DNA of 64,000 nt. It comes from an uncultured bacterium (GTDB lineage: Bacteria; CSSED10-310; CAZUFC01). Each line of letters begins with the position of its first letter. The stretch's first letter is position 1. The notes below the pieces were generated by a model. The model had not been told where the DNA came from, made no database searches, and was given only the letters and a program-made list of their open reading frames with translations. A program made the position numbers and the translations under genes. The stretch lies in assembly GCA_964619725.1 (NCBI GenBank), contig CAZUFC010000001.1, positions 128,001 through 192,000 on the forward strand, given 5' to 3'. Positions 2,704 to 60,750 of this stretch are shown here, in pieces.

Positions 2704-2787
2704 CCGTTTGATTTACGCTGATTAGGGGATGCAGAGAGATTTGAAATTGAGTTACACAGGCAGAAGAAAATGAAATAGGAGGTGAGA

Positions 2788-4140
2788 ATGATACGAGTCA
2801 AAATTCATGGAGGGAAAGGTTATACGCTGAGTGAGCCGGCGCCGGAAGAAGCGATTCAGAAAATGCCTTTGCCTTCCGAAGTGCAAATTCCCATCTCTTT
2901 TGGAGCATCCGAAGAACATCAGCCTCTGGTACTGGCCGTCGGGGATCAGGTTAAGACAGGAAGCATATTGTATCACCATAAGGAAGAATTGTGTGCTCCG
3001 GTCCTTTCTTCCGTTACGGGCGAGATTACGAGAATAGAGGATTTTCGATATCCTGAGTATGGTCGTATGTTGTCGTTAACCATAAGCAGAGCTGGTGAAG
3101 AGGAGTATGACGAAAGGTTGTCGAGTTTGAGCGATTATAAGAATGCGGAACCTGAAAAAATCGTGCGTCATATGATGGATATGGGAATTGAGTTGGGAGC
3201 TTGTATGGACAGAGCGCCGTCATCGGTCGTAAGGCCGGAGGAGGAAGCTGAAAAAGGTGCGGACGCACTTGATGTACCCTCCTTGACATCTTTAATCGTT
3301 AATGGTTGCGATCTGCAGGCCAACCGCAATATCAGGAAGCGGCTGTTGCTGGAACGGAAGGATTTATCAGAGGGAATAGAGGTTTTAAAGCGAATTTTCG
3401 GAAGCGAAGACGTTATTTTGACGTTACCGGCGGGAGCGAACGACGTCAAAGAAGCGGTACGGACGAACGGACTCCCCGATGAAGTAAAAATTATTGAGAT
3501 TAAAAACGTTTATCCTTATGCTCATCCCAAACTGCTCATAAAGGCGGCATTGGGAAAGGAAGCGGACGATTACGGTCTTTCAGTCGGCGCCGGCGTGATC
3601 GACGTAGAGACGGCGCTTGCGACGCTGGAAGCGGTAAGGGACGGCAAACCGGCTGTTGAGCAGTATATAACGGTTTCCGGTGACGGCGTAGGCAAACCTG
3701 CGAACCTGGCCGTGCGCCGCGGTACGAGGTTAAAAGAAATTCTTGAGTTTTGCGAGTATGCCGACGGCAGGAAAAGTAAAATAGTATTCGGCGGACCCAT
3801 GAAAGGCGTTTCTCAGTACAACATTGAGACTCCTGTGACTGAAGGAACACAGGCCATATGGATACAGGATGAGAAGAAGGTTTTTCATTCTTCGTATGAG
3901 CCGTGTTTTTCGTGCGGGGAATGCGTTTACGTATGTCCAATGCGGCTTATGCCGAATATGCTGGGGCGTTTTTGCGAATTCGATCAATTCGAATGGGCGG
4001 AAAGCGCGTATGATCTGACGGCGTGCATTGAATGCGGGTGTTGCGCTCACGTCTGTCCTGCCAGGCGACCGATGGTACATTTTTTCAAACTTGGTAAACG
4101 TGAATTGGCCCGATTAGCGGAAAAGAGTATGTCATTATGA
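2788..4140 (+). CDS. rnfC: Rnf complex subunit C-like protein (divergent)
   Basis: N-terminal sandwich-barrel domain (VGDQVKTG...SSVTG), SLBB region GGPMKG, two 4Fe-4S motifs (CFSCGECVYVCP, CIECGCCAHVCP); RBS AGGAGG before ATG 2788. Confidence 0.9.
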   Translation: MIRVKIHGGKGYTLSEPAPEEAIQKMPLPSEVQIPISFGASEEHQPLVLAVGDQVKTGSILYHHKEELCAPVLSSVTGEITRIEDFRYPEYGRMLSLTISRAGEEEYDERLSSLSDYKNAEPEKIVRHMMDMGIELGACMDRAPSSVVRPEEEAEKGADALDVPSLTSLIVNGCDLQANRNIRKRLLLERKDLSEGIEVLKRIFGSEDVILTLPAGANDVKEAVRTNGLPDEVKIIEIKNVYPYAHPKLLIKAALGKEADDYGLSVGAGVIDVETALATLEAVRDGKPAVEQYITVSGDGVGKPANLAVRRGTRLKEILEFCEYADGRKSKIVFGGPMKGVSQYNIETPVTEGTQAIWIQDEKKVFHSSYEPCFSCGECVYVCPMRLMPNMLGRFCEFDQFEWAESAYDLTACIECGCCAHVCPARRPMVHFFKLGKRELARLAEKSMSL

Positions 4141-5132
4141 ATACAGCAAACGAAACAAAAAGCGCACAAGGCGCCTTGACGCAAGGCGAACCCCGGAGGG
4201 TCGTTTCATTCGGACCCCACGTATGGGTAAAAAAACACGTCGACAGGATGTTGCTTTTTACGCTTCTGGCATTGATCCCGACGTTGTTTTTTTCATTCTA
4301 TTATTACAGGCTGGGAGCATTAAAAGTCATTCTGATTGCAGTAGTAACGGCCGTCGTTTTGGAAACGGCAGTGCAAAAGCTGATGCGCCGCCCCGTTAAG
4401 CTCAAGAATGGGCAATTGATCACCACCGCGCTGATATTCGCTTTTTTGCTGCCGGCTACGACTCCGTGGTGGGTTGTTCTGATCGGCTCTGCGGTTATGG
4501 TGATAGCAGGCCGGATGTTGTTCGGCGGATTTCCTTATTATGTCTTCAATCCTGCATTAGCGGGATGGGCTATGGTAAGGCTTTCCTGGGGAGATTATTT
4601 GAAGGAATTTCCTGCTCCGTTTTCTCTGGACATTTCAGAGACGCCGATGCAGATATTAGGAGAATACGGCGTAGACGGGCTGATGGGATTCGACGTAACC
4701 AATATGGCTTTGTTAAAGGGAGCGTTTCCCGCTGCACTGGGTACTATCGCCATTCCGGCGATCATCGCAGGGGGGATTTTCCTGATCGTTACGCGCACGA
4801 TCAAGTGGAAAATAACGGCATCTTTTTTGGCGTCCGTATTTATTTTCGCCTGGATACTGAAAGCGGCGAATCCTGACGTTCAACCCGGTCCCGTGTTTCA
4901 CCTGTTGACCGGAAGCGTAATGCTGGCGGCGTTTTTCATCGTAACGGACCCCTGCTCGACTCCCGTAACGCTGTGGGGGCAAATTTTATTTGGTATTCTA
5001 TGCGGAGCGATAACTATGGTGATAAGGAACTGGGGAGCGTATGCGGACGGAACGATATTCGCCGTATTGATAGTCAATATGACGACTCCGCTTTTAGACA
5101 GAATTAAACGAAAAACGTTTGGAAGGAGGTAA
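4137..5132 (+). CDS. rnfD: Rnf complex subunit D
   Basis: Polytopic; LFGG...FNPALAG, AFFIVTDP..TP, DG..FAVL..N..TPLLD; candidate FMN-Thr in ISETP. Confidence 0.95.
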   Translation: MNTANETKSAQGALTQGEPRRVVSFGPHVWVKKHVDRMLLFTLLALIPTLFFSFYYYRLGALKVILIAVVTAVVLETAVQKLMRRPVKLKNGQLITTALIFAFLLPATTPWWVVLIGSAVMVIAGRMLFGGFPYYVFNPALAGWAMVRLSWGDYLKEFPAPFSLDISETPMQILGEYGVDGLMGFDVTNMALLKGAFPAALGTIAIPAIIAGGIFLIVTRTIKWKITASFLASVFIFAWILKAANPDVQPGPVFHLLTGSVMLAAFFIVTDPCSTPVTLWGQILFGILCGAITMVIRNWGAYADGTIFAVLIVNMTTPLLDRIKRKTFGRR

Positions 5133-5137
5133 CTGCG

Positions 5138-5731
5138 GTGCCTGATACAGTACGAATGGTTCTTGTGTTGACTTTGATTTGCGCTGCATCTGCATTGGCC
5201 TTAAGCGCTGTAAAGCAGGTTACGGAAGATAAAATCGCTTATCAGGAATTGAAGTTCGTCAAGGGACCGGCTGTCCGCGCTGTTCTGGAAGGCGCTGATA
5301 ATGATCCTATCCAGGACCGCGCCGATAACCTCACATTGACGAGCGCCTCCGGAGAAACAGTTAATAAAACCGTATTTCCTGCGAAAAAAAACGGAAAGGT
5401 CTCGATGGTGGCATTTGAGGTATCAAAGAGCGGTTATCATGGAGACGTTACCATTATGTTGGGTATAGATGTGGAAACGGATAAATTAAGCGGCGTTCGC
5501 GTGACCGGACATACGGAAACTCCTGGATTGGGAGCCCGAATAACGGAGCCGGATTTTTATGAGCAGTTTGCGGGATTGAGCAAGGCCGAGGCGTCGTTGT
5601 CTTCGGAAGGCGGCGATGTGGATGCGGTAACAGGGGCGACTATTTCCTCGGTCGCGGTAACCGGAGGAGTGAAGTATGGTCTTGAGCTTTACCTGGAAAA
5701 CAAGGAAACTATTTTAAATAAAACATCGTAA
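5138..5731 (+). CDS. rnfG: Rnf complex subunit G
   Basis: N-terminal TM helix, GYHG, HTETPGLG, FMN motif DAVTGATISS. Confidence 0.95.
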   Translation: MPDTVRMVLVLTLICAASALALSAVKQVTEDKIAYQELKFVKGPAVRAVLEGADNDPIQDRADNLTLTSASGETVNKTVFPAKKNGKVSMVAFEVSKSGYHGDVTIMLGIDVETDKLSGVRVTGHTETPGLGARITEPDFYEQFAGLSKAEASLSSEGGDVDAVTGATISSVAVTGGVKYGLELYLENKETILNKTS

Positions 5732-5741
5732 GGAGCTGCCG

Positions 5742-6335
5742 ATGGCATCAACGCTGACGAAGGATTTTACAAAAGGATTATGGAAAGAGGTGCCGCCTTT
5801 TCGGCTGGTGTTGGGTCTGTGTCCTGTTCTGGCTGTGACGACTGCGGCGTTTAACGGCCTGGGCATGGGTCTGGCGACCACTTTCGTGCTGACCTGTTCA
5901 AACACTATCATTTCTATTTTAAGAAAGCTTATTCCCCGAAAGGTCAGGATCGCTTCTTACATCGTTGTGATCGCCACCTTCGTGGTCATCACCGAACTGG
6001 TCATGCACGCTTATACCTATAAACTGTATGAAGCCCTGGGAATATTCATCCCGCTTATCGTGGTCAATTGCATTATCCTGGGCAGGGCCGAAGCCTTCGC
6101 AAGCAAAAAACCGGTCATCAATTCCATTGCCGACGGACTCGGAATAGGACTCGGTTTCACGGCTTCGCTTACTCTCCTGGGCGCCATTAGAGAAATAACA
6201 GGAAACGGAACCCTGTTCGGCGCTTCCCTCTTCGGACCGGACTTTGAACCTTTCACCTTCATGGTCCAGGCCCCGGGCGCCTTCGTCTGCCTGGGAGCAG
6301 TCCTCGGACTCATGAACATGATAAGCAAAGATTAA
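5742..6335 (+). CDS. rnfE: Rnf complex subunit E
   Basis: LGLCPVLAVT, IPLIVVNCIILGRAE, PGAF. Confidence 0.97.
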   Translation: MASTLTKDFTKGLWKEVPPFRLVLGLCPVLAVTTAAFNGLGMGLATTFVLTCSNTIISILRKLIPRKVRIASYIVVIATFVVITELVMHAYTYKLYEALGIFIPLIVVNCIILGRAEAFASKKPVINSIADGLGIGLGFTASLTLLGAIREITGNGTLFGASLFGPDFEPFTFMVQAPGAFVCLGAVLGLMNMISKD

Positions 6336-6385
6336 ATCTGCGAAAGCATTAGTCTTATGAACCATACCAAGGGAGAATAAAATAA

Positions 6386-6979
6386 ATGGAACACTCCTCC
6401 TCACTTCAGGATTATATGATATTACTGTTGAGCGCCATGTTGATTAAAAACGTCCTGCTGGCCAAGTTTCTGGGGCATTGTCCTTTTCTGGGGGTTTCCC
6501 GGAGAATGGAAACGGCTGTGGGAATGAGCATGGCCGTCGTTTTCGTTATGACGATGGCAGGCATGATAACCTGGGTTGTCCGGCGTTTTTTACTGGAACC
6601 TTTCGACCTGACATACATGCAGACCATCGCTTTCATTCTCGTTATCGCTTCACTCGTGCAATTCGTGGAATTGTTTCTTCAAAAAACAATCCCGGCGCTT
6701 TATAAAGCCCTCGGCATCTTTCTGCCGTTGATTACCACAAACTGTGCTGTGCTCGGCGTGGCTCTCCTCAACATTAACGAAAATCACGACTTTATTAAAA
6801 CCGTCGTTTTTTCAATCGCCTCCGCCATTGGATATGGCTTGGCTCTGATACTGTTTGCGGGATTACGGGAAAAATTTGAGGTCAGCGATATACCGAAGCC
6901 TTTCAGGGGGACGGCCATCGGCCTGATTACCGCCGGAATGATGTCTATGGCTTTTATGGGATTCGCCGGACTTGTGTGA
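6386..6979 (+). CDS. rnfA: Rnf complex subunit A
   Basis: FLGHCPFLGVS, LPLITTNCAVLG, AGLRE. Confidence 0.97.
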   Translation: MEHSSSLQDYMILLLSAMLIKNVLLAKFLGHCPFLGVSRRMETAVGMSMAVVFVMTMAGMITWVVRRFLLEPFDLTYMQTIAFILVIASLVQFVELFLQKTIPALYKALGIFLPLITTNCAVLGVALLNINENHDFIKTVVFSIASAIGYGLALILFAGLREKFEVSDIPKPFRGTAIGLITAGMMSMAFMGFAGLV

Positions 6980-7084: not shown

Positions 7085-9223
7085 ATGGGTTGGGCAATTT
7101 TAGTTCTTGCCGGTCTTGGGTTGGCTGCGGCTGCAGTTCTGGCGGCGGCATCCAAGATATTTTATGTTTATGTCGACCCTAAAATAGAAGCGGTAGAAGA
7201 TGCCCTGGCGGGCGCCAATTGCGGCGGATGCGGAGCGCCCGGATGTTCCGCCGCTGCTGAAATGATCGTGGCGGGCAAGTTGCCGGTGACGGCATGCGTG
7301 GCCGGCGGTGAAGAAGTTGCTGAAGAAGTGGCTGCTGTAATGGGCGTCGAAATGGAATTCAAGGAACCGGAAATTTCCGAATGCGGTTGCCGCGGCGGAG
7401 TTTTACAGGCTGACAGGATATACGAGTATTCGGGAGTAAAGGATTGCAGGGCGGTCGACATGCTGGCTGAAGGAGACAGCATATGCACGACTTCATGCCT
7501 GGGTTACGGAACATGCGTCCGGGCCTGTCCTTTCGATGCCATGACTCAGGGCGAAGACCTTCTGCCTAAAATAGATTTTACTCGCTGTGTGGGTTGCGGC
7601 GTGTGCGAGGAAATTTGTCCTCATGATGCGGTCAAACTGGTTTCGGAGTCCAGGAAGCTTCTGCACTGGCTGGAGAAGGACGAATGTTCGGCGCCCTGTC
7701 AAACGAAGTGTCCCGCACAGATAGACATACCCAGTTATATCTTTCATATTCGGAATAAACGTTATGCGGATGCCCTTGACGTTATTCGCGAGCATAACCC
7801 GCTGCCCATAACATGCGGTTATGTGTGTCCGCATCCCTGCGAAGAGGTCTGTCGCCGATTGAATGTGGACGAACCGGTAGCGATTAACGATCTGAAGCGG
7901 TTTGTCGCTGACTATGAGCTTGACGACAAAGGAAAGTCCATGGCGGGAAGGTTGTCCGTTCTTCCTGACACAGGCAAAAAGGTAGCAATAATGGGCGGCG
8001 GACCCGCCGGGTTGTCGGCGGCTTATTTTTTGAGACGGTTAGGCCATTCGCCCACTATCTTTGAGCGTATGCCGAAATTAGGCGGAGCCCTCGAATACGG
8101 CATACCGGAATACAGATTGCCTAAAGCTCGCCTGGCCAAGGAAATTCAGGGAATTTTGGACCTGGGCGTCGAAACGCGTCTGCAAACGGAATTAGGCAAG
8201 GATGTAACTATGGAATCGCTCAAAGAAGAAGGTTTCGACGTTTTTCTCCTGGCGGGAGGCACTCCGACCGGATTCTACAGCGGAACGGAGGGCGAAGACC
8301 TGGAAGGTATTCTCCTGGGCATTGATTTCCTTCGCGATTATGCTCTGGGAAAAGACGTGCCGCTGGGCGAAAGAGTGCTGGTAGTCGGCGGCGGCAACGT
8401 GGCTGTTGATGTCTCGTTGACGGTTAAAAGACTGGGCATTCCCATCGTTTATCAGGCCAGCCTGGAAGACAGGTGGACCATGCCGGCATGGGAACATGAG
8501 ATTCAGGACGTCCTCGTCCAGGGCGTCAACCTTATTCCGACCTGGGGACTAAAGAGATTTATCGGCAAAAACGGCAAACTCACAGCCGTAGAAATGCAAA
8601 GATGCGAATGCGTGTTTGACGAAGAAGGCCGGTTTAATCCTCAGTATGACTGCGATCAGACTATGAACATCGCCATCGACAACGCCTTGATTACTATCGG
8701 ACAGGGAGTCGATACCGAATTCATGAAGTCGCATCCCATTTTGAAAAATGTCCTGGACAGTCGAGGAAAAGTTGATATCGATAGCGCCACCATGCAGACG
8801 AATGTCGATTACATTTTTGCTGCAGGCGAAATCGTAACCGGACCGGGGCTGGCGATTGAAGCCATTGGCGCCGGAAGAAAAGCAGCCGTCAATATTCACC
8901 GGTATCTCACCATGGAGCAACCCGGTAAAGTCGAACCTTTGCCGCGGCTGCTGGGTCAAATTCGTGATTATGCCGATGAGGAAGAACTGGCCGAAATTCC
9001 GAAGGAGGAAAGACAGAGAGAACGAAGATTACCCCCGGAAAAACGTCAGGGATTCGACGTCGTGAACCTCGGTTTCACGGAAGAACAGGCTTTGAAAGAA
9101 GCCGGCAGGTGTCTTCAGTGCGGGATGTATTGCTTCATTAATCCCCGCACGGGTCATGAGAAAGACGGCAAACAGAGCGAAGCGGAAGGAACTGCTCATA
9201 GAGAGCGCATGAGCAAAGTGTAA
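7085..9223 (+). CDS. rnfB: RnfB fused to a GltD/NfnB-like FAD-dependent NAD(P) oxidoreductase
   Basis: TM anchor, NCGGCGAPGC, ferredoxin motifs, then APCQTKCP, CGYVCPHPCEEVC, GGGPAGL, YGIPEYRLP, GGGNVAVD, terminal RCLQC. Confidence 0.9.
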   Translation: MGWAILVLAGLGLAAAAVLAAASKIFYVYVDPKIEAVEDALAGANCGGCGAPGCSAAAEMIVAGKLPVTACVAGGEEVAEEVAAVMGVEMEFKEPEISECGCRGGVLQADRIYEYSGVKDCRAVDMLAEGDSICTTSCLGYGTCVRACPFDAMTQGEDLLPKIDFTRCVGCGVCEEICPHDAVKLVSESRKLLHWLEKDECSAPCQTKCPAQIDIPSYIFHIRNKRYADALDVIREHNPLPITCGYVCPHPCEEVCRRLNVDEPVAINDLKRFVADYELDDKGKSMAGRLSVLPDTGKKVAIMGGGPAGLSAAYFLRRLGHSPTIFERMPKLGGALEYGIPEYRLPKARLAKEIQGILDLGVETRLQTELGKDVTMESLKEEGFDVFLLAGGTPTGFYSGTEGEDLEGILLGIDFLRDYALGKDVPLGERVLVVGGGNVAVDVSLTVKRLGIPIVYQASLEDRWTMPAWEHEIQDVLVQGVNLIPTWGLKRFIGKNGKLTAVEMQRCECVFDEEGRFNPQYDCDQTMNIAIDNALITIGQGVDTEFMKSHPILKNVLDSRGKVDIDSATMQTNVDYIFAAGEIVTGPGLAIEAIGAGRKAAVNIHRYLTMEQPGKVEPLPRLLGQIRDYADEEELAEIPKEERQRERRLPPEKRQGFDVVNLGFTEEQALKEAGRCLQCGMYCFINPRTGHEKDGKQSEAEGTAHRERMSKV

Positions 9224-9444
9224 TAAGCAAGGCTAATTTGATTTTTCAGCCGATGAAAGAAGGCGGTCAATGCGCTGTTGACCCATAACCGACCGCATTA
9301 CTTCGAAACGCTTGAGAAAATAGCGGGAAAGATAAGACCTGCCATACGCCGGCCCGAAATTTGCTTAACAAGTTGACCTGTCGGCGCGAGGGAAGAACCC
9401 GGCTGTCCGACAATGAAATTCACACCGGATCAGGGAGATTGATA

Positions 9445-11103
9445 TTGGAAGTTAAAACAAAGTTTTTCAAAAGCCTGGGGGCAAAACTCGTATTGTCCGT
9501 CGGACTTATACTGGTTATTTCAATCGCTGTTTTTGCCGTAGTGAACACAAAAGATCAGCGGGATCAACTGATCAATCAGGTGATAACCGGGGCCAATCAG
9601 TTTTCCGATACGGTTATGAGCAGCACCTGGTATTACATGCTGAAGGTGGAAAGGGACGACATTCATCGCATCATCGATTCGATAGGAGATCAGGAGGAGA
9701 TAGACGATCTTCGTATTTTCAATAAAGAAGGCGTCATTATGTTTTCTTCTATCGAAGATGAGAGAGGCCATAAAGTCAATCTTCAGGCGGAGGCGTGCTA
9801 TGCGTGTCATGCCAGGGAAAAGCCGCTGGAAAGACTGTCCACCCCGGAAAGGACCCGGATATACCGTAAACCCGACGGCGAGAGAGTTCTCGGGATGATC
9901 ACCGCCATTTATAATGAGCCTGCCTGCTATAATGCGGCTTGTCATGCGCATCCCAAGAATAAACAGGTATTGGGCATTCTCGATATCGTCATGTCTCTGA
10001 CCGACGTAGACAAAAAAATCGCCGGAAGCCGCAAAAAAATCTGGCTGTTCGCTTCCATGGAAATGCTGGTCATCTCCTTCATTATCGTGGCTTTTTTGCA
10101 TACATCCGTCGTAAAACCCATCGGAAGATTGGTCAGCGGCACACAAAAAATCGCTTCCGGCGATCTGACGACAAGAGTCAAAATTAAATCAGCCGACGAA
10201 TTCGGCGTCCTGTCGGACTCGTTTAATCAAATGGCGAAAAACCTTCAACGCGCTGAACAGGAACTGACGGAATGGGGAAAAACGCTCGAACATAAGGTCG
10301 AAGAGCGCACCAAAGAGCTGAAACAAACGCAGGCGCAACTTGTTCAATCAGAAAAAATGGCCTCGCTGGGAAAACTGTCAGCCGGAGTCGCCCATGAACT
10401 CAATAATCCGCTTACGGGCGTGCTCACCTATGCCTCGCTTCTCTATGAAGACTCCCAAGAAGGAAGTCCCGAAAAGGAAGACCTCAAAGTCATAATCGAT
10501 GAAACATCGCGCTGCAAAAGAATTATCCGGGACCTGCTCGAATTCTCCCATCAGAATCAGCCCATGAAAAACAGGATAAACATCAACTCCCTCATTCAAA
10601 ATACGCTCAGCGTTTTGAAATATCAGGCTGCGTTTCAGGATATTGAAATAATAAAGGAATTCGATGAAAACCTGCCCGATGTGGAAGCCGACCGTGACCA
10701 GATTCAGCAGGTCTTTATGAACATTATTATGAATGCGGCCGACTCCATGCCTCACGGCGGATCGCTGACCATCGAAACCCGCCTCTCCAGCGTGGCAGAT
10801 AACGTCAAAATTACTTTTACCGATACAGGCAAAGGGATAGAGGAAGAACATATTCCCAAATTGTTTGATCCGTTCTTTACGACCAAACCGGTCGGACAGG
10901 GAACCGGTCTGGGCCTGGCCGTCAGTTACGGCATTATTCGAAGGCATCACGGCTCCATTAACGTCAAAAGCGCTCTGGGAAAAGGCGCCACATTCACTAT
11001 TACTCTTCCCACCATCAGCGGTACTGAAGAAGATGAACACGATGAATATTACGAAGAAGAGCCGGAGAATGAAGAAGTTCAGATCAAAGACGAAGAAAAG
11101 TAA
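9445..11103 (+). CDS. Membrane sensor histidine kinase with periplasmic heme-c motifs, HAMP, HisKA and HATPase domains
   Basis: Two TM helices flank CYACH and CYNAACH; H-box AHELNNPL; N box NAAD; DTGKG, FDPFFTTK, GTGLGL; start placed at TTG 9445 after GGGAG. Confidence 0.9.
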   Translation: MEVKTKFFKSLGAKLVLSVGLILVISIAVFAVVNTKDQRDQLINQVITGANQFSDTVMSSTWYYMLKVERDDIHRIIDSIGDQEEIDDLRIFNKEGVIMFSSIEDERGHKVNLQAEACYACHAREKPLERLSTPERTRIYRKPDGERVLGMITAIYNEPACYNAACHAHPKNKQVLGILDIVMSLTDVDKKIAGSRKKIWLFASMEMLVISFIIVAFLHTSVVKPIGRLVSGTQKIASGDLTTRVKIKSADEFGVLSDSFNQMAKNLQRAEQELTEWGKTLEHKVEERTKELKQTQAQLVQSEKMASLGKLSAGVAHELNNPLTGVLTYASLLYEDSQEGSPEKEDLKVIIDETSRCKRIIRDLLEFSHQNQPMKNRININSLIQNTLSVLKYQAAFQDIEIIKEFDENLPDVEADRDQIQQVFMNIIMNAADSMPHGGSLTIETRLSSVADNVKITFTDTGKGIEEEHIPKLFDPFFTTKPVGQGTGLGLAVSYGIIRRHHGSINVKSALGKGATFTITLPTISGTEEDEHDEYYEEEPENEEVQIKDEEK

Positions 11104-11385
11104 AAAGGGCTTGTTTGCATTCGATTTATAAACCACCGGGGCAATTTCTGGAATTAATGACGCGTGTATAACGGAATCGAATAGCGATAAGGTCCGTTTC
11201 TCCTGTAATATCGAATTCCTGATGTCCGCCGAATCGGCATTCCGTCAAGATAAAAAAACGCGACAGATTGGAAAGGTAAACCTGGACATATGAATTTCAT
11301 TCGACAAAAAAAACAAATTTCTCACCGGTATCATATCTTTGTTGATGAAAGGTTTTAAGGAAAGGAGCCGGAGAGAATGAAGGGG

Positions 11386-11425
11386 CAGTATAAAAAGTTT
11401 ATACAGGTGTACGACCTTTATACTG
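11386..11425. promoter_or_regulatory. Nested inverted repeat, candidate upstream activator site
   Basis: CAGTATAAA...TTTATACTG with inner GTATAAA-AAG-TTTATAC, about 250 bp upstream of the sigma-54 motif. Confidence 0.3.
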
Positions 11426-11657
11426 ATGAAGGAAAACAATTTTTGCAAAGGTAGAAATTAACTGAAAACAGGTTTCAGTAATAGGGCTGCGTCCTGGGAG
11501 AAGCAACAAGACGGCGCTCAGGAACGATTGATCTTGACGACATTTCCGGATAAAGAGGGACAACCCGACGAAGGCCGGTCGACTTTTTGCCGGCGGTCTT
11601 TTATAATTGAGCAGGCTTATTATGAAGTGTAATCGGCGGATAAGATCGTAAGTCTTG

Positions 11658-11675
11658 TCGGCATGTAATTTGCTT
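11658..11675 (+). promoter_or_regulatory. Putative sigma-54 (-24/-12) promoter of the REC-GcvH/hydrogenase operon
   Basis: TCGGCATGTAATTTGCTT: GG-N10-GC spacing, 38 nt before the ATG at 11712. Confidence 0.65.
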
Positions 11676-11711
11676 CCACAACGAATCGGGAATTAAGAAA
11701 AGGAGGTTCCC

Positions 11712-12476
11712 ATGGCTAGAATATTAGTGATTGATGATGAAATAGTTGTTTGCGGCAGCGTAGGGAAGATACTCCGCAGGGATAATCATGAAATCACATG
11801 CGTTTTGACTGCTGAGGAGGGAATGGAATTTCTGGAGAATCAGTCTTTTGATTTGATTATAACTGATTTAATGCTGCCGAAAATGAGCGGTATGGAACTT
11901 CTGGAAAAAGTGAAGGAAAAGTGGCCCGGTATACGGGTTGTCATGATAACCGGGTATGCAACGGTAAAGAACGCCTTGGAAGCGATGAAGCACGGAGCAT
12001 TCGATTTTCTCCCGAAACCTTTCACTCCGGATGAATTGCGAACCGCCGCAGAGCGGGCGTTGCAGAGAAACAAGCTGGGATCGGCTGAATCGGCCGTTTC
12101 AAAGATACAGGAGGATATTGCGGACAGCGAGAACATGTATTGCATTCCGGAATATTCCTGGGTGAGACTGAAGGATGACATGGCCGTCGTGGGTATTGAT
12201 CGCGTGTTTTTAAAAACGATCGGCGACATTGAACACATAGAGTTTCCTTTTAAAGGCGATGAGCTGTTACAGGGAAGCATTTGCGCGCGCCTGGCGGGCA
12301 AGAACGACAGGATTTACACGATTTGGACGCCCATAAGCGGTAAAGTGATCGAAATAAATTACGATCTTAACAAGGATATTTCAATTTTGAAAAAGGACCC
12401 TTACGGCAAGGGCTGGTTGATGACGCTGCAGGCAAGCTCCGTAAAAGAGGATTTGAGAAACCTTTTGAAGGTATGA
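11712..12476 (+). CDS. Response regulator receiver domain fused to a glycine-cleavage-H-like domain (paralog 1)
   Basis: REC motifs VIDDE, ITDLMLP, ITGY, PKPF; GcvH-like YSWV...VGI...PISGKVIEIN...DPYGKGWL. Confidence 0.88.
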   Translation: MARILVIDDEIVVCGSVGKILRRDNHEITCVLTAEEGMEFLENQSFDLIITDLMLPKMSGMELLEKVKEKWPGIRVVMITGYATVKNALEAMKHGAFDFLPKPFTPDELRTAAERALQRNKLGSAESAVSKIQEDIADSENMYCIPEYSWVRLKDDMAVVGIDRVFLKTIGDIEHIEFPFKGDELLQGSICARLAGKNDRIYTIWTPISGKVIEINYDLNKDISILKKDPYGKGWLMTLQASSVKEDLRNLLKV

Positions 12477-12520
12477 AGCCTGAGTCATGCGAAAGGACTT
12501 TATCCTGAAAGGAGTTGGAC

Positions 12521-13297
12521 ATGGCAAATATACTGGTTGTAGATGACGAAGCTGTGGTGTGCGGCAGCGTTGAACGCATATTGAAACGGAACGGACATGA
12601 AACCGAATGCGTTTTGACGGCGAAAGAAGGCCTGGATTTAATGCAGAACAGAGATTTTGATCTGGTGATAACGGATTTAATGCTGCCGAAAATGAGCGGC
12701 ATGGATTTAATGCAGATCATCCATGATAAGAAGCCGTCCTTGCCCATAATAATGATTACGGGGTACGCCACAGTAAAAAATGCGGTTCAGGCTTTAAAAA
12801 TCGGCGCTTTTGATTTTATTCCAAAACCTTTTACTCCGGAGGAGCTACGTTCTGCGGTCACCCGGGCGCTGGAACGGAGCCGTCTGAAAAAGGAAAGCAT
12901 CAGCCCCCTGCCTGATACCAGGAATATGTATGGGATTCCTGAGCATTCATGGATAAAAATCGATAACGGTGAAGGGGTGGCGGGCGTCGATCCCGTTATG
13001 CTTAAAACGATCTCAAAGGTGATCAGCATCGAATTTCCCTTTAAAGGCGACGAACTTTCCCAGGGAGGAATTTGCGCCCGCCTGATATCGAAGAACAGGA
13101 AAATATATGCGGTATGGTCGCCTTTATCCGGGAAAGTGACGGATGTGCACTACAGGCTAAATCAGAATATCGACAAGTTGGAGACTGACGCTTACGGTGA
13201 GGGATGGCTGTTGAAGATAGAACCGACTTTGTTCGATGAAGAAGTGAAAAACTTGAAATCATACCAGGAACAAACCGAAGAGAATGAATCAGAATAA
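12521..13297 (+). CDS. Response regulator receiver domain fused to a glycine-cleavage-H-like domain (paralog 2)
   Basis: REC motifs VVDDE, ITDLMLP, ITGY, PKPF; HSWI...PLSGKV...DAYGEGWL; RBS AAGGAG. Confidence 0.88.
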   Translation: MANILVVDDEAVVCGSVERILKRNGHETECVLTAKEGLDLMQNRDFDLVITDLMLPKMSGMDLMQIIHDKKPSLPIIMITGYATVKNAVQALKIGAFDFIPKPFTPEELRSAVTRALERSRLKKESISPLPDTRNMYGIPEHSWIKIDNGEGVAGVDPVMLKTISKVISIEFPFKGDELSQGGICARLISKNRKIYAVWSPLSGKVTDVHYRLNQNIDKLETDAYGEGWLLKIEPTLFDEEVKNLKSYQEQTEENESE

Positions 13298-13814
13298 GAT
13301 AGGACGGATTCTGGCTGCAGGCGTCGGTAATTCCGCCATGAGCGACGATTCCGTCGGAGTGCGGATTATCGAAGAACTGAGAAAACGGGAATGGCCGGAG
13401 AACATTGATTTTGTCATGCTTGATTATGATCCGGTCGACCTTTTAACGTTTTGCGAACAGTACGAATGTCTCGTATTAATCGATGCCGTATCGCGAAGCG
13501 GGAATCCCGGTCAATTGCATATAATAGCCCAGGAGGATTTCTTCAAAGAAGCAAAGCGAGAACGTCCGTGTTCGCTTCATCAACTGGGGCTTTCAGAAAC
13601 GTTGAAGCTGGCCCGTGCACTGGGATACCGTTTCCGGTTTTTCCTTTTCGGCATCGAATTCGAAGATTTAAGTCCGGGATTCAGTCTCTCCCGAAAATTG
13701 GCCGACCGTTTTTCCGGCCTGGTTGATGAGATCGCTTCAGAGCTTTTAAAAATCTCTAATAAGAAATCGAAACAGGCGATCTGCAATGATCGTTTGGAGG
13801 TTGCAGTAAAATGA
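13284..13814 (+). CDS. [NiFe]-hydrogenase maturation protease (HyaD/HycI family)
   Basis: GVGN.AMSDDSVG, LIDA, SLHQL. Confidence 0.92.
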   Translation: MNQNKIGRILAAGVGNSAMSDDSVGVRIIEELRKREWPENIDFVMLDYDPVDLLTFCEQYECLVLIDAVSRSGNPGQLHIIAQEDFFKEAKRERPCSLHQLGLSETLKLARALGYRFRFFLFGIEFEDLSPGFSLSRKLADRFSGLVDEIASELLKISNKKSKQAICNDRLEVAVK

Positions 13815-14842
13815 TAGCTAAACTGTTGCCGAAACAGTATACGAGGAAATTTATCAAGAACCTTGAGTCGTTCGGCAAGGTCCATGCTCCGGTCATGAAA
13901 GACGATCAGAACGTCGTTTTTTCAGAAGTCGAGGACCCGAAAGACGTAGTTCTGCATTATCAGACGACGATAATTCCGCCGAAGAAGTATTTTTTCAAGC
14001 CGGAGCAGGTCATATTGACCTTTTCGAAAGATAAGGGTTATGAGATACCTGAGGAGGAATTACGGGAAAAACTGGTGCTGTTCGGAGTTCACTCCTGCGA
14101 TATAGCGGCTTTACAGATTCTGGACCTGGTTTTTTCGGACAATTATTACGATAAATTCTACTTCACCAGGAGGCGCAATACGGTCGTCATCGGAATCAGT
14201 TGCACTCCTGACATATATTGTTTTTGTTCGTCCATGGGAACGGATTATGTCGAAAAAGGCTTTGATCTTTTTTTGACGGACATTGGCGATGAGTGGTTCG
14301 TTCGTATCGGAACGGCGAGAGGCGACGACATAGTTCGCCATAACGACAGATTCTTTAAGGAGGCTACTCCGGAGAGCATACGGGAATTCAAGGACTTTGC
14401 GAACAAGTTTCATGAGATGTTTACACGTCATCTTGATTTGAGCAATCTTTCGCCTATTCTGGAACTGGAATATCAGAGCAAGTTGTGGGATGAGCTGGGC
14501 GACAAGTGCTTAAGCTGCGGAACCTGCTCCTTGATATGTCCGACGTGCTATTGCCACAACATGGTCGACAAGGTTGATTTTAAAGGAACAGGAGAACGTG
14601 TTAGGACCTGGGATTGCTGTTTGTATGAGGATTTCTCCCTGGTAGCCGGCGGTCATAACTTCAGAGAAAGCAGAGCCTCCCGCATAAAAACCCGTTTTTT
14701 TCACAAACAGCAGGGTTTCGTGGAAAAATACGGCCGACCCAGTTGCGTCGGGTGCGGTAGATGTATTGAAAAATGCCCTGCGGGTATTGACATGGTCTCC
14801 ATTCTTGAAAAAATAAGGGGGGAAACGGATGTTGCCGTCTAA
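13811..14842 (+). CDS. Group 3b (sulf)hydrogenase beta subunit (4Fe-4S, AsrA-like)
   Basis: GVHSCD, CFC.SMG, CLSCGTC...CPTCYC, CVGCGRC...CP. Confidence 0.9.
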   Translation: MIAKLLPKQYTRKFIKNLESFGKVHAPVMKDDQNVVFSEVEDPKDVVLHYQTTIIPPKKYFFKPEQVILTFSKDKGYEIPEEELREKLVLFGVHSCDIAALQILDLVFSDNYYDKFYFTRRRNTVVIGISCTPDIYCFCSSMGTDYVEKGFDLFLTDIGDEWFVRIGTARGDDIVRHNDRFFKEATPESIREFKDFANKFHEMFTRHLDLSNLSPILELEYQSKLWDELGDKCLSCGTCSLICPTCYCHNMVDKVDFKGTGERVRTWDCCLYEDFSLVAGGHNFRESRASRIKTRFFHKQQGFVEKYGRPSCVGCGRCIEKCPAGIDMVSILEKIRGETDVAV

Positions 14843-15704
14843 GTTAGCCAGAACGCTTTCCGATCCTAAGGAAGGCTACATATACAAGCCTCACAATGCA
14901 AACATAACTGACATAAGGTCTTTAATACCTGAACATAAGGTGTTCCGCATCGTCTTCGAGGATGAAGACTACCGGGAAAAATTCACTTTCAATCCCGGTC
15001 AGTTCATGATGCTGAGTCTTTTAGGGGCCGGTGAAGCGCCGATATCGATATGTTCTTCGCCGACCGAAAAAGGTTTTTTTGAATTATGCGTGCGGCGCAC
15101 GGGGAGAATAACCGACAAGCTTCACGATATGCAGGAGAATGATCGGGTCGGCGTCAGGGGACCATACGGAAACGGCTTTCCCGTTAATCTGCTGAAGGGT
15201 AACGATCTTCTTATGATAGTCGGCGGTTTAGGCATGGCTCCCCTGCGTTCCTTGCTGCGATATGTCGTCGACAAACGGAAAGAATTCGGAAGGGTTACTC
15301 TGGCGTACGGAATAAGGTCGCCCGATGACATGCTGTTTCACGATGAAATTATGCACCTGTTTCATCGCAAGGATATGAACGTGCTGCTGGCAGCGGAAAA
15401 CGCCGGAGAGCATCAAGACTGGCCGGGGAGCATCGGAATGGTTACTGACTTGTTCGACTCCTTTGACGTCGACCTGGAAAAAACTTATGCCGTCGTCTGC
15501 GGTCCTCCCGTAATGTATAAATTCGTTTTAAAGGGGCTGTTGGATATCCATTTCTCCAAAGACAAGATTTTCATGTCTCTGGAACGAAAAATGAAATGCG
15601 GCGTAGGCAAATGCAATCATTGTTCGATCGGTTATAAGCTAACCTGCATCGATGGACCTATTTTTACTTACTGGGATGCGATTAATCTTCCCGAAATAAT
15701 TTAG
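14829..15704 (+). CDS. Group 3b (sulf)hydrogenase gamma subunit (FAD/NAD(P)-binding, 2Fe-2S)
   Basis: PGQF, GEAPISI, RGPYGNGF, GGLGMAP, CGPP.M, MKCGVGKCNHC...C.DGP. Confidence 0.92.
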   Translation: MLPSKLARTLSDPKEGYIYKPHNANITDIRSLIPEHKVFRIVFEDEDYREKFTFNPGQFMMLSLLGAGEAPISICSSPTEKGFFELCVRRTGRITDKLHDMQENDRVGVRGPYGNGFPVNLLKGNDLLMIVGGLGMAPLRSLLRYVVDKRKEFGRVTLAYGIRSPDDMLFHDEIMHLFHRKDMNVLLAAENAGEHQDWPGSIGMVTDLFDSFDVDLEKTYAVVCGPPVMYKFVLKGLLDIHFSKDKIFMSLERKMKCGVGKCNHCSIGYKLTCIDGPIFTYWDAINLPEII

Positions 15705-15715
15705 GGGAATGAAAT

Positions 15716-16501
15716 ATGAGTGAAAAACCTTCGTTATCAATTTACGGACTCACGGGTTGCGCAGGCGATCAGTTGACGATATTGAACTGCGAAGATGAAC
15801 TGCTTGAAATATTTGATGCGGTCGATATACACTCCTTTGTTATGGCTCAAACCGGAAACGTCGAAGATAAAGTGGACGTAGCCCTGGTTGAAGGTTCAGT
15901 CACGCAACCGCATGACAAGGAACATCTGCTGCAAATACGCGAAAACTGTAAGATGCTGGTCGCTATTGGCACCTGTGCTGTTTGGGGCGGCGTTAATGCT
16001 CTCAGAAACGACGCCGACCGCAGACAGCTCATCAACATCGTCTACGGACCCGAAAACAAAAGCGTGAAATACCGGGAACCAGCGCCGCTGAGCGCCTTCG
16101 TTCATGTGGACTACGCAATTCCCGGATGTCCTGTTGAAAAATCGGAAATCCTGCACGCACTGGCATGCCTGGCTCAAGGCGTCGCTCCCGTTATTCCCAA
16201 TTATTCTGTCTGTCATGAATGCAAAATCAGGGAAAATCGCTGCTTATTGATGGAAGACGGCGCCTTCTGCATGGGACCCATAACAAGAGGCGGCTGCGGG
16301 TCCAAATGTCCGAATCTCGGAAGGCCCTGCATAGGATGTCGAGGTCCTGTGGCGGATGCCAATATTCTTTCGGAAGCGAAAATTTTGAGGGAAAAGGGAT
16401 ATGGGTATCCGGAAATATTGAGACGGCTTCAAACATTCGCTTATCCTGCTAATGCCGTCAATGAAGTTAGAAAAAAATTTCTGCTTGATTCGAAAATATA
16501 A
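15716..16501 (+). CDS. Group 3b [NiFe]-hydrogenase small (delta) subunit
   Basis: TGCAGDQ, VEGSV, IGTCA..GG, IPGCP, distal Cys cluster; no Tat signal, so cytoplasmic. Confidence 0.92.
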   Translation: MSEKPSLSIYGLTGCAGDQLTILNCEDELLEIFDAVDIHSFVMAQTGNVEDKVDVALVEGSVTQPHDKEHLLQIRENCKMLVAIGTCAVWGGVNALRNDADRRQLINIVYGPENKSVKYREPAPLSAFVHVDYAIPGCPVEKSEILHALACLAQGVAPVIPNYSVCHECKIRENRCLLMEDGAFCMGPITRGGCGSKCPNLGRPCIGCRGPVADANILSEAKILREKGYGYPEILRRLQTFAYPANAVNEVRKKFLLDSKI

Positions 16502-16516
16502 GGGAGGAAAAAGGCG

Positions 16517-17815
16517 ATGCCTCATTCTTTTACTATAGACGTTAACGAAGTATGCCGGGTTGAAGGGCACGGTAATATCCACGTTGCAGTGAAAAATAAT
16601 GCCATAGAATACGTCAGGATGGGTATTCATGAAGGTCCCCGATTATTCGAAGCAATGTTCGTCGGCCGCAAATTCCAGGAGGTCCCCAAAATAGTTTGCC
16701 GTATCTGCGCCATCTGCTCAGCTCATCACGATCTGACCTCCATCATGGCACTGGAAAACGCCCTCGGCGGCGTCCGAGTCTCCGAACAGACGAAACTTCT
16801 TCGAGAATTGCTTTTCCTGGGCGGACAGATCGAAAGCCATTATCTGCACATTTTTTTCCTGGCTCTGCCTGATTTCCTAGGATACGACGGTGCAGCCGCC
16901 ATGGCGGCTGATTATCCCGAAGAAGTCAAGCTGGCGCTCAAAATGAAAAAATTGGGCAATACGATCCAGGAATTGGTCGGGGGAAGGGCAATTCATCCCA
17001 TAACTACCGATATCGGCGGTTTCTCAGACGTTCCTTCCGAAAAGGCATTGATGGATTTAAAAACCCAACTGGAAGAAGCCCTGGAAGGCTCCGTCAAAAC
17101 AGCGGATATCCTGGCGGGAATAGATTATACGGATTATTACACTGACCAGGACTTCAAATACCTCGCCGTCAAACCGAACCACGATGATTTCGGATTCATG
17201 GGCGACAAAATCATGGATTCCAACGGCGGACTGAATCCTGTCGAAAAATACAAAGATTACATCAGGGAATACGTCGTGGACCATTCCACGGCCAAGCAAA
17301 GTCTATACAATGAAAAGTCTTTCATGGTGGGCGCTATCGCCAGGACCAACCTCCTGGGAGACAGACTGAAAAACAGGGCGGCTGAAGCATTAAAAAAACT
17401 CGGCCTCGACGAATACTCTGTCAATCCCATTCATAACACTCCCGCCCAGGCCGTCGAAGGTATCTACTGCATCGAACGATGCATCGAAATAATCGATGCC
17501 CTGCTGGAGAAAGGCGTCAAAAAGGAACCTCAAGCCGGCTATGAAGTAGTTCCGGGAACGGGAGCAGCCGCTACGGAAGTACCCCGTGGAACCCTTTATC
17601 ACAGCTATTCCATCAATGAAAAAGGAATCATTACTGCCGCAGATGTTATTACCCCAACGGCTCAAAACCTGGCTAACATCGAATTCCACATGAGACAAAC
17701 AGTCCGGGGTACAAAAGATAAATCTCAGCAGGACATCCGGATGGAATTGGAAAAACTCGTTCGGGCCTATGACCCATGCATTTCATGTTCCGCTCACGCC
17801 GTCTTCCTGGATTGA
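16517..17815 (+). CDS. Group 3b [NiFe]-hydrogenase large (alpha) subunit
   Basis: RVEGHG, L1 RICAIC, GGRAIHP, EVPRG, L2 RAYDPCISCSAH plus a 5-aa cleavable tail. Confidence 0.95.
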   Translation: MPHSFTIDVNEVCRVEGHGNIHVAVKNNAIEYVRMGIHEGPRLFEAMFVGRKFQEVPKIVCRICAICSAHHDLTSIMALENALGGVRVSEQTKLLRELLFLGGQIESHYLHIFFLALPDFLGYDGAAAMAADYPEEVKLALKMKKLGNTIQELVGGRAIHPITTDIGGFSDVPSEKALMDLKTQLEEALEGSVKTADILAGIDYTDYYTDQDFKYLAVKPNHDDFGFMGDKIMDSNGGLNPVEKYKDYIREYVVDHSTAKQSLYNEKSFMVGAIARTNLLGDRLKNRAAEALKKLGLDEYSVNPIHNTPAQAVEGIYCIERCIEIIDALLEKGVKKEPQAGYEVVPGTGAAATEVPRGTLYHSYSINEKGIITAADVITPTAQNLANIEFHMRQTVRGTKDKSQQDIRMELEKLVRAYDPCISCSAHAVFLD

Positions 17816-18168
17816 TGGAACGCCCCTGGTTATTAACATAAATTCATATGCTCTGCTTCCCATCCAATAGCGCCTTCAATACTTCAGAAAAAATGACGGT
17901 GACTGAAACTACGAATCTCAGAACAGACGCTTCCCCCTTGGACTATCCCGCTGCGATCCCTCTTTTCACGCCCCTTGACAGGTCCAGCCATTTGAATTCA
18001 TGGTCTGCGTTATAGAATAAATTCTTGACTTTGATTGATCGTTTGTGCAGTAATATACTAGAGAAAGCTTCCGGTCGTGAGGAACGGACGGCTTGTAAAG
18101 CATTCGGAAATAAAACAGTCGAAGGGTTTGTCCCATTTGAAAATGAAATTTTTTATTCAGAGGAGGCT

Positions 18169-54758: not shown

Positions 54759-54776
54759 TTGGCACGAAAAATGCTT
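54759..54776 (+). promoter_or_regulatory. Near-consensus sigma-54 promoter with no convincing downstream gene
   Basis: TTGGCACGAAAAATGCTT: GG-N10-GC. Confidence 0.6.
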
Positions 54777-60604: not shown

Positions 60605-60622
60605 TCGGCATGAAGATTGCTT
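60605..60622 (+). promoter_or_regulatory. Putative sigma-54 promoter
   Basis: TCGGCATGAAGATTGCTT: GG-N10-GC; nearly the same as the 11658 motif. Confidence 0.6.
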
Positions 60623-60750
60623 CTGTGTGAATGAAGCGGGAACTTTATTACAAAACGTTCCAATTGCAAACTGATTGGGAAGCAAGGGAATCCGGAAGAC
60701 TTTGCGAATCAATCAATGAAATCAAGTTAATCAAAAAGGAGGAGGAAGTT

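Follow-up and report, generated by a model that had tools for sequence, protein, structure and literature searches.

The region analysed here lies in a window of 64,000 nucleotides (nt) from an uncultured bacterium (GenBank assembly GCA_964619725.1, contig CAZUFC010000001.1, positions 128,001 to 192,000), and all coordinates given without a locus label refer to this window. Judged by its genes, the region is a predicted two-component system attached to the operon of a group 3b [NiFe]-hydrogenase, in which a sensor histidine kinase with periplasmic heme motifs is followed by two response regulators, named here REC-GcvH1 and REC-GcvH2, and by genes for a maturation endopeptidase and a soluble four-subunit hydrogenase. 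Every open reading frame (ORF) from rnfC (position 2782) to the end of the gene for the hydrogenase large subunit (17815) was found on the plus strand, and the domains recovered in a Pfam scan that took in 47 ORFs of the window fit the description given in the original prediction, which had been made from the sequence alone and had pointed out this co-orientation.

REC-GcvH1 (11712..12476, plus strand) has 254 residues, in which Pfam, an AlphaFold2 (AF2) model and Foldseek identified an NtrC-type receiver (REC) followed by an H-protein fold without the lipoyl lysine. REC-GcvH2 (12521..13297, plus strand) is its sister paralogue (55% identical, with 100/99 support for the pairing) and has 258 residues when counted from the ATG at 12521, which stands behind a ribosome-binding site (AAGGAG) and is most likely the start codon, instead of the TTG at 12515 that had been proposed before. 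Both proteins scored above the Pfam cut-offs for Response_reg (PF00072; 98.4 bits for REC-GcvH1 and 106.9 bits for REC-GcvH2, cut-off 30.2) and GCV_H (PF01597; 65.9 and 50.9 bits, respectively, cut-off 22.2). The receiver pocket of REC-GcvH1 is formed by D8, D9, D52, T80 and K102, which we take to be the acidic pair, the phospho-acceptor aspartate, the Thr/Ser and the Lys of canonical receivers; the equivalents are all present in REC-GcvH2, and the pocket columns were invariant or nearly so across 27 sequences. By both structure and sequence, the closest receivers were those of NtrC1, NtrX and DctD. Pfam detected neither an AAA+ sigma-54 interaction domain nor a Fis-type helix-turn-helix in either regulator, in agreement with the earlier description of two receivers with intact phospho-sites and no DNA-binding or AAA+ domain. 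They share a complete phospho pocket, an adjacent kinase gene and the lack of a DNA-binding domain with CheY, REC-STAS and similar regulators with non-DNA outputs, but the H-protein (barrel-sandwich hybrid) fold of their output sets them apart.

The AF2 model of REC-GcvH1 reached a predicted local distance difference test (pLDDT) of 92 and a predicted template-modelling score (pTM) of 0.87, and its C-terminal half was superimposed by Foldseek on solved H-proteins with a template-modelling score (TMt) of 0.75-0.81 and a root-mean-square deviation of 1.7-2.0 Å. We then compared the lipoyl-lysine column in an alignment of 51 REC-GcvH family members and seven stand-alone GcvH/LbpA-like proteins. 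Lysine occupied this column in 9 of the 51 family members, as against all seven stand-alone proteins, and the family as a whole presented 11 different residues, including Asp in REC-GcvH1 and Arg in REC-GcvH2. The hairpin that bears the lysine was one residue longer in the family and highly variable. The GcvH equivalog models fell well short of their cut-offs on the regulators (TIGR00527, 64.3 vs 115.85 bits; NF002270, 65.5 vs 117 bits), and no gcvT, gcvP or lipoate ligase gene was found among the 47 ORFs scanned. Since the lipoyl lysine is lost and the equivalog models stay below cut-off, the output domain is an H-protein by fold and not by function; the GcvH-like barrel of the original prediction is upheld as a fold by Pfam and Foldseek, without the lipoyl lysine of a working H-protein. 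The output comprises about 115 residues, with nine positions invariant over 11 diverse domains, and a cysteine four residues past an invariant QG is almost invariant in the family. The regulators share the fold of GcvH and LbpA proteins and exceed the Pfam GCV_H cut-off; the LbpA proteins belong to the sulfur-oxidising heterodisulfide reductase (Hdr)-like system (sHdr), and REC-GcvH members are also found fused or adjacent to Hdr-like proteins. In contrast to both, the REC-GcvH family does not conserve the lipoyl lysine and carries the additional hairpin residue and a fused receiver, and the two window genes have no gcvT/gcvP or ligase gene nearby.

The two regulator genes head a closely packed run in the order REC-GcvH1, REC-GcvH2, hycI, hydB, hydG, hydD and hydA. 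The start of hycI (13284) and the stop codon of REC-GcvH2 (13295-13297) overlap by 14 nt, followed by overlaps of 4 nt between hycI and hydB and of 14 nt between hydB and hydG, whereas hydG and hydD are separated by 11 nt and hydD and hydA by 15 nt, with no overlap at either junction. The overlapping run said to begin at REC-GcvH2 was therefore confirmed as far as hydG, while the last two junctions are gapped. The hycI gene (13284..13814, plus strand) codes for a HycI-type hydrogenase maturation endopeptidase (Pfam HycI, 57.9 bits; NCBIfam hydrog_prot, 100.8 bits, cut-off 47.45), whose product has GN..DD, IDAV and SLHQ stretches that presumably supply the metal-binding residues. The four structural genes, all on the plus strand, code for an iron-sulfur beta subunit (HydB-like, 13811..14842; Pfam Fer4_22), a gamma subunit (HydG-like, 14829..15704; FAD_binding_6, NAD_binding_1 and DHODB_Fe-S_bind), a delta or small subunit (15716..16501; Oxidored_q6) and the [NiFe]-hydrogenase alpha or large subunit (16517..17815; NiFeSe_Hases). 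Their top NCBIfam models were sulfhyd_HydB/ShyB, sulfhyd_ShyC/HydG, sulfhyd_ShyD/HydD and sulfhyd_HydA/ShyA, respectively, in each case under the equivalog cut-offs. The gamma subunit has FAD, NAD(P) and 2Fe-2S modules, and the nearest homologues of the beta and gamma subunits are named "sulfhydrogenase subunit beta/gamma" by their database sources. The large subunit presents RICAIC near the N terminus and DPCISCSAH at the C terminus, followed by AVFLD, and we take RxCxxC and DPCxxCxxH as the definitions of the NiFe-binding motifs. From the domain set and the best models, we provisionally place the enzyme in group 3b of the [NiFe]-hydrogenases (sulfhydrogenase type) and predict that it is cytoplasmic and NAD(P)-linked. 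Like sulfhydrogenases I and II of Pyrococcus furiosus, it has four subunits with the same domain set; the best NCBIfam models of all four are sulfhydrogenase models (sulfhyd_Hyd/Shy A, B, G/C and D), and the large subunit has both the RxCxxC and the DPCxxCxxH motif. The window operon differs from theirs in being headed by two response regulators and hycI, and the scores far under the equivalog cut-offs suggest that it belongs to a distant bacterial relative of group 3b.

The kinase gene (9445..11103, plus strand) starts with a TTG codon behind GGGAG. From the sequence and Pfam, its product consists of a transmembrane segment, a periplasmic Cache-like domain, a second transmembrane segment, and HAMP, HisKA and HATPase_c domains. 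The loop of about 165 residues between the two hydrophobic segments holds CYACH (CXXCH) and CYNAACH (CX4CH), which confirms the periplasmic heme motifs that had been read in this kinase. Orthologues stand ahead of REC-GcvH at three loci from another phylum (in genomes G051 and G090) and are 46-48% identical over their full length, sensor included; the first CXXCH is invariant in all four kinase orthologues, and the second motif varies between CX2CH, CX3CH and CX4CH. An AF2 model of the sensor loop, built from the four-sequence alignment (pLDDT 68), consists of a five-stranded sheet and, at the N terminus, a long helix; both cysteine motifs fall on helices that lie between strands. When this model was used in Foldseek, the Cache domains of WalK, KinD, DctB and Tlp3 came out on top and the heme-c sensor GSU0935 ranked ninth, while the sequence match to GSU0935 (3b42) was weak (E = 0.19). 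The model is thus consistent with a periplasmic sensor of the single-Cache type with a helical insert that carries the invariant CXXCH, followed by a variable CXnCH.

According to a 2026 preprint (PMC12889525), the CXXCH of heme-c Cache domains sits on a helical insert, and those fused to signalling modules behave like sensors of nitric oxide (NO). The known heme-c Cache sensors (GSU0582/GSU0935 of Geobacter; sCache_heme, DUF3365/Tll0287, PF11845) resemble the window sensor in having an extracytoplasmic single-Cache fold between two membrane segments and a CXXCH in a helical insert between strands, which in the window protein is followed by HAMP and the kinase output. The window sensor differs from them in its second cysteine motif of variable spacing (CX2-4CH) and in giving no PF11845 match at E ≤ 0.001. 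By analogy, it is predicted to work by the same design, although it falls short of the family profile. This kinase was the sole sensor of such a heme-motif type found in the genome, which contains two Cytochrom_C_asm genes, making heme attachment feasible.

The kinase and REC-GcvH1 genes are 608 nt apart. The long spacer between the kinase and the first regulator, read directly (11104..11658), contains a 25-codon ORF (11378-11455) behind AGGAG, inside which lies a 17-nt direct repeat (11398-11414 and 11417-11433), and an Rfam scan of positions 9000-18200 gave nothing below E = 0.35. We scored upstream regions against the general sigma-54 -24/-12 consensus, the resulting boxes being pattern matches. 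A sigma-54-type box (CGGCCCGAAATTTGCT, 9350..9365, plus strand) agrees with the consensus at 10 of 12 positions and lies about 80 nt ahead of the kinase start, and another (CGGCATGTAATTTGCT, 11659..11674, plus strand), also with 10 of 12 positions, lies 37 nt ahead of REC-GcvH1; counting both strands, the window has five sites of this quality, and these are two of them. We also examined 123 upstream stretches, each 250 nt long, at the related loci; three scored at least 10/12, and all three were ahead of REC-GcvH genes, one in the window and two in G051 (11/12; 83 and 88 nt before the genes). The gene rpoN was found in the genome, and Pfam detected no sigma-54 activator among the window ORFs. 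An orphan NtrC-type activator is encoded on contig 17, directly before a third REC-GcvH copy; it is 53% identical to an activator of G051 that stands between the kinase and a REC-GcvH gene, and the REC-GcvH copies beside these two activators group together with 96/90 support. A search for activator binding sites gave a single weak inverted repeat, ahead of the kinase gene; the spacer in front of REC-GcvH1 had none. Taken together, the sigma-54-type boxes, rpoN and an orphan activator akin to the kinase-adjacent one of G051 suggest that this activator is likely the putative transcriptional arm of the system. Two further sigma-54-type boxes of the window were noted, one (60606-60621, 10/12) ending 9 nt ahead of a 580-residue ORF without a Pfam family (60631-62373) and one at 54760-54775 (11/12).

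A search for proteins combining REC and GCV_H, with their gene neighbours tabulated, had been suggested as a check and returned a diverse family, for which 45 loci were tabulated. Both Pfam domains were present in 35 of the 120 best matches in a collection of 5.8 billion proteins, three of which add an HdrC-like di-cluster domain. Among 1.84 billion cluster representatives, the H-fold profile alone found 9316 proteins at E ≤ 0.001, and the best 150 representatives (clustered at 50% identity) included 64 with both receiver and H-fold. The third copy of the genome (in the region L001:9168-11827, on contig 17 of G000) has a receiver without the conserved Thr and Lys (DSE for DDE, MARY for ITGY and PMPF for PKPF) and hence looks like a pseudo-receiver. 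This third copy, together with the 35 best database matches and the 64 best representatives that have both domains, indicates that the architecture is not a chance pairing and that it marks a real and diverse family. In the window's own phylum, the fusion was found in one of 14 genomes, namely that of the window, with three copies. It was found in two of 401 genomes from the phylum of a Deltaproteobacteria metagenome-assembled genome (MAG), counting strong matches only and leaving aside weaker frames of 230-350 residues (E from 1e-22 to 1e-25). Within the class of an Aminicenantes MAG, 35 of 301 genomes had a match at E ≤ 1e-28. The matching frame had at least 235 residues in 33 of these genomes, and all 33 of these long frames were full-length REC-GcvH fusions. 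A contig scan with the H-fold alignment was dominated by ordinary GcvH genes, and none of the 80 loci kept from it had the fusion. No solved structure combines a receiver with an H-fold, no NCBIfam model reached its cut-off on the regulators, and the literature search found no paper on the receiver-GcvH architecture, so that the earlier statement that no characterised example was known still holds.

Several members of the family are joined to iron-sulfur modules. REC-GcvH is fused to an HdrC-like domain in four proteins (P0023, P0041, P0117 and P0131). In G051, a heme-motif kinase is followed by an NtrC-type activator, REC-GcvH, REC-STAS, a 104-residue ORF and a further REC-GcvH, and then by an Hdr part consisting of a REC-GcvH-HdrC fusion, an HdrB-like CCG protein and an HdrA/NfnB-like protein of 1580 residues. 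The last of these (L135:6551-11293) combines HdrA/GltD-like flavoprotein modules with a C-terminal PIN domain. In the top match of the representative search, P0123 (1391 residues, metagenome), a GlcD-like FAD oxidase and an HdrD-like Fe-S/CCG module share one chain with three lysine-less H-folds. Tandem arrays of two or three H-folds were also seen in P0132, P0196, P0224 and P0156. A search of 271 proteins (P0001-P0271) for a HycI-like domain joined to REC-GcvH gave no match. The nearest stand-alone relatives keep the lysine and adjoin lipoate ligase and radical-SAM genes. The repeated joining of the lysine-less fold to iron-sulfur redox modules is the main basis for regarding it as a candidate docking domain.

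To describe the gene neighbourhood, we used a census of 45 loci with full-length REC-GcvH, made up of the window, four loci from G000, G051 and G090, seven from metagenomes and 33 from the Aminicenantes class; the metagenome scan had given nine loci, of which L141 was dropped as a duplicate of L142 and L148 for having no full-length REC-GcvH. A HAMP kinase stood directly upstream and co-oriented at 38 of the 45 loci, with an sCache_3_3 sensor in 32, a heme-motif sensor in three and a cut or unassigned sensor in three. In agreement with the original prediction, the kinase and REC-GcvH therefore recur together as a two-component module, including the heme-motif orthologues at three loci. A HEAT/WD40 protein of about 1050 residues was encoded directly downstream at 30 loci, a sigma-54 activator within the stretch at five (L001, L135, L179, L183 and L184) and Hdr-like genes at two, and five loci had two or three REC-GcvH copies. 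The three-gene cassette of an sCache_3_3-HAMP kinase, REC-GcvH and the HEAT/WD40 protein was observed at L142, L146, L147 and 27 of the loci L169-L201 (e.g. L177:2901-5996), and in several Aminicenantes-class genomes it is followed by genes for a DPP-IV-like peptidase, a methyltransferase, UbiA, MgtC and Ham1. The only Protein Data Bank entries that the HEAT/WD40 protein matched were designed HEAT/armadillo repeats and WD40 proteins.

All four group 3b hydrogenase genes adjoin REC-GcvH at four of the 45 loci (the window, L146, L169 and L183), with differing kinase sensors and gene orders: in L169 REC-GcvH lies directly before hydB, in L146 the hydrogenase genes and hycI precede the kinase, and in L183 REC-GcvH is separated from the hydrogenase by the HEAT/WD40 gene. 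A maximum-likelihood tree of 51 rows placed the copies linked to a hydrogenase at four positions, with four changes of label, at least three of which are forced by well-supported branches. When the labels were shuffled, equally few changes were obtained in 122 of 500 trials, which indicates that the hydrogenase label is scattered rather than clustered. The link to a hydrogenase claimed for the window thus recurs, with at least three separate origins. A HydB-like gene was also found 17-29 kb from REC-GcvH on the same contig in four more genomes (G623, G685, G461 and G673). At a further locus, L171 (3962-9330), the only gene of the hydrogenase set is one resembling the gamma subunit (FAD/NAD/2Fe-2S), which lies just upstream of REC-GcvH between REC-HisKA and HisKA-HATPase fragments, an arrangement that could be a split hybrid kinase with an inserted redox gene.

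Considering the operon structure, the recurrent adjacency and the Hdr fusions, we tentatively favour a heme-sensing two-component system whose lysine-less H-fold outputs may bind the hydrogenase (HydB/HydG) or its maturation step. In such a system, as in the heme-c Cache sensors taken as analogues, the periplasmic heme would report either the redox state or the presence of a diatomic gas, for instance NO, and the kinase would phosphorylate both REC-GcvH proteins and probably also the orphan NtrC-type activator of contig 17, which would fire the sigma-54-type promoters ahead of the kinase gene and the regulator-hydrogenase operon. Phosphorylation of REC-GcvH would free or re-orient its lysine-less H-fold, and the fold would then serve for docking and not for carrying a cofactor, its partner being either an electron-transfer subunit with iron-sulfur or flavin groups (HydB/HydG in this operon) or the maturation step of HycI, so that hydrogenase activity could follow the sensed redox state faster than transcription allows. 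In a more specific version, which we consider rather unlikely as stated, the lysine-less H-fold would be a phospho-switchable decoy of a lipoyl carrier that is released when the heme sensor fires and plugs or bridges Fe-S/flavin subunits, HydB/HydG in the window and HdrC/HdrB-type subunits elsewhere. The arrangement has a known parallel in HoxBC-HoxJ-HoxA of Cupriavidus/Ralstonia, through which hydrogenase genes are controlled in response to H2. Both would be two-component systems dedicated to a hydrogenase, with an NtrC-type activator and sigma-54-type promoters that in the window are likely the transcriptional arm; the window differs in that its sensor is a periplasmic heme-motif Cache domain instead of a regulatory hydrogenase, and in having extra regulators with non-DNA outputs inside the operon.

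Several results weigh against direct action on the hydrogenase by a heme-sensing system. The hydrogenase genes are adjacent at just four of the 45 loci, and a HydB-like gene was present in all 36 genomes searched, which are all REC-GcvH carriers, so that this count is uninformative without control genomes. The commonest neighbour, the HEAT/WD40 protein, was not found in the window's genome (91% complete) with one query of 1031 residues. As for the sensor, the pLDDT of 68 makes its model a moderate one, the two heme-motif stretches being its least confident parts, the match of PF21563 to the kinase was weak (22.4 bits, cut-off 27; E = 1.5e-4), and the PF11845 profile (Tll0287-like, sCache_heme) gave none at the threshold stated above. 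The kinase and the regulators are separated by the 608-nt spacing and seemingly have separate promoters. The sigma-54 boxes are pattern matches, with 28 equal or better sites in 1,206,604 scanned positions. A sigma-54 promoter and the orphan activator could explain the control of the hydrogenase without any action of REC-GcvH on the enzyme.

That possibility, in which the hydrogenase would be controlled by transcription only and the REC-GcvH proteins would stay inside the pathway, serving as connectors or phosphate sinks or modulating the kinase or the activator, seems to us somewhat unlikely. It would account for the sigma-54-type boxes ahead of the kinase and REC-GcvH1 and for the 11/12 boxes ahead of the two REC-GcvH genes of G051, for the activator adjacent to REC-GcvH at five of the 45 loci, and for the G051 string of a kinase, an activator, three REC-GcvH proteins and REC-STAS, a layout typical of branched phosphorelays; the loss of the receiver Thr and Lys in the third copy is also what is seen in pseudo-receivers of signalling complexes. 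However, no activator was seen in the examined stretch of 40 of the 45 loci, a conserved output of 115 residues is not needed in a phosphate sink while the H-fold is kept family-wide, and the fusion of the lysine-less fold to HdrC- and HdrD-like modules points outside the pathway. An unlikely alternative is that the placement beside the hydrogenase and Rnf genes reflects no direct functional link, the target of REC-GcvH lying elsewhere, as would be the case in the majority clade with its HEAT/WD40 partner, and the joined operon being a local accident or a matter of co-expression. The neighbour counts speak for it, with the hydrogenase adjacent at four loci as compared with 30 for the HEAT/WD40 protein and one for Rnf, as do the other neighbours, which vary widely and include cytochromes, acetyl-CoA enzymes and transporters. 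Against it stand the tight packing of the genes, with overlaps or short gaps from REC-GcvH2 through hycI to hydBGDA, the adjacency at no fewer than three separate tree positions with differing gene orders, and the loose linkage at 17-29 kb in four further genomes; by a rough estimate for the 33 Aminicenantes-class genomes, chance would produce about one case within 30 kb, while six were seen, two of them from close relatives.

We consider it very unlikely that the H-fold is still a swinging-arm carrier, for instance of a persulfide on the conserved Cys, that feeds Hdr-like or sulfhydrogenase-type enzymes under phospho-control. The almost invariant Cys past the QG would suit such a role, its nearest stand-alone relatives bind lipoate and have genes for a lipoate ligase and a radical-SAM enzyme next to their own, and fusions join the fold to Hdr-like modules, relatives of which act on disulfides or on lipoate-bound sulfur (the sHdr-LbpA system). 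The same column is nevertheless Cys in four of the seven lipoylatable stand-alone proteins, which argues that it is not a gain specific to the family; moreover, the hairpin of the lysine has one extra residue and varies greatly, 11 different residues being found at the lysine column, and the window contains no ligase or sulfur-transfer gene.

The two-component system, the Cache sensor with heme motifs and the group 3b hydrogenase are each of known kinds. Our searches found no published description of a receiver whose output is a lysine-less H-fold, or of a coupling of such a protein to redox enzymes. Two-component systems are almost always interpreted as switches of genes, and the output of REC-GcvH is a protein fold with a lost cofactor site. 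The family is large, with no fewer than 64 clusters (50% identity) in the top 150 representatives, comes from several phyla of uncultured anaerobes, and has hydrogenase, heterodisulfide-reductase-like and other electron-transfer modules as fusion partners or neighbours. If REC-GcvH acts directly on these enzymes, this would constitute a fast control layer for the balance of hydrogen and of ferredoxin/NAD(P)H in sediments and digesters, and a case in which a lipoyl-carrier fold was reused as a signalling module; if the decoy version is true, a two-component system would for the first time be seen to control a [NiFe]-hydrogenase directly and post-translationally, and the mechanism would be a general gate on the flow of electrons in anaerobes that have not been cultured. 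As a test case the window is compact, having one kinase, two regulators and one soluble hydrogenase of four subunits, all of them expressible.

Upstream of the kinase, the window carries rnfC, rnfD, rnfG, rnfE and rnfA (2782..6979, plus strand; Pfam RnfC_N, NQR2_RnfD_RnfE, FMN_bind and two Rnf-Nqr domains), followed by an rnfB gene fused to a GltD/NfnB-like NAD(P)H flavoprotein module (7085..9223, plus strand; 712 residues; Pfam FeS, Fer4, Fer4_20 and Pyr_redox_2), on which NCBIfam returned rnfB models and models like those of the glutamate synthase small subunit. The original prediction had named Rnf as a possible target of the regulators, and we rejected it as a conserved partner, given that Rnf genes adjoin REC-GcvH in the window alone (1 of 45 loci). 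The full-length RnfB-NfnB fusion was observed in three of 14 genomes of the phylum (G000, G009 and G010), G000 also having an ordinary short RnfB on contig 95, and a similar NfnB-like module occurs in the 1580-residue protein of G051 downstream of REC-GcvH-HdrC. Past the hydrogenase, co-oriented genes between 18025 and 23978 code for a Peptidase_C39-like protein of 590 residues, a protein with tetratricopeptide repeats (TPR) and an FGE-sulfatase domain, a 355-residue ORF without a family, and a methyltransferase.

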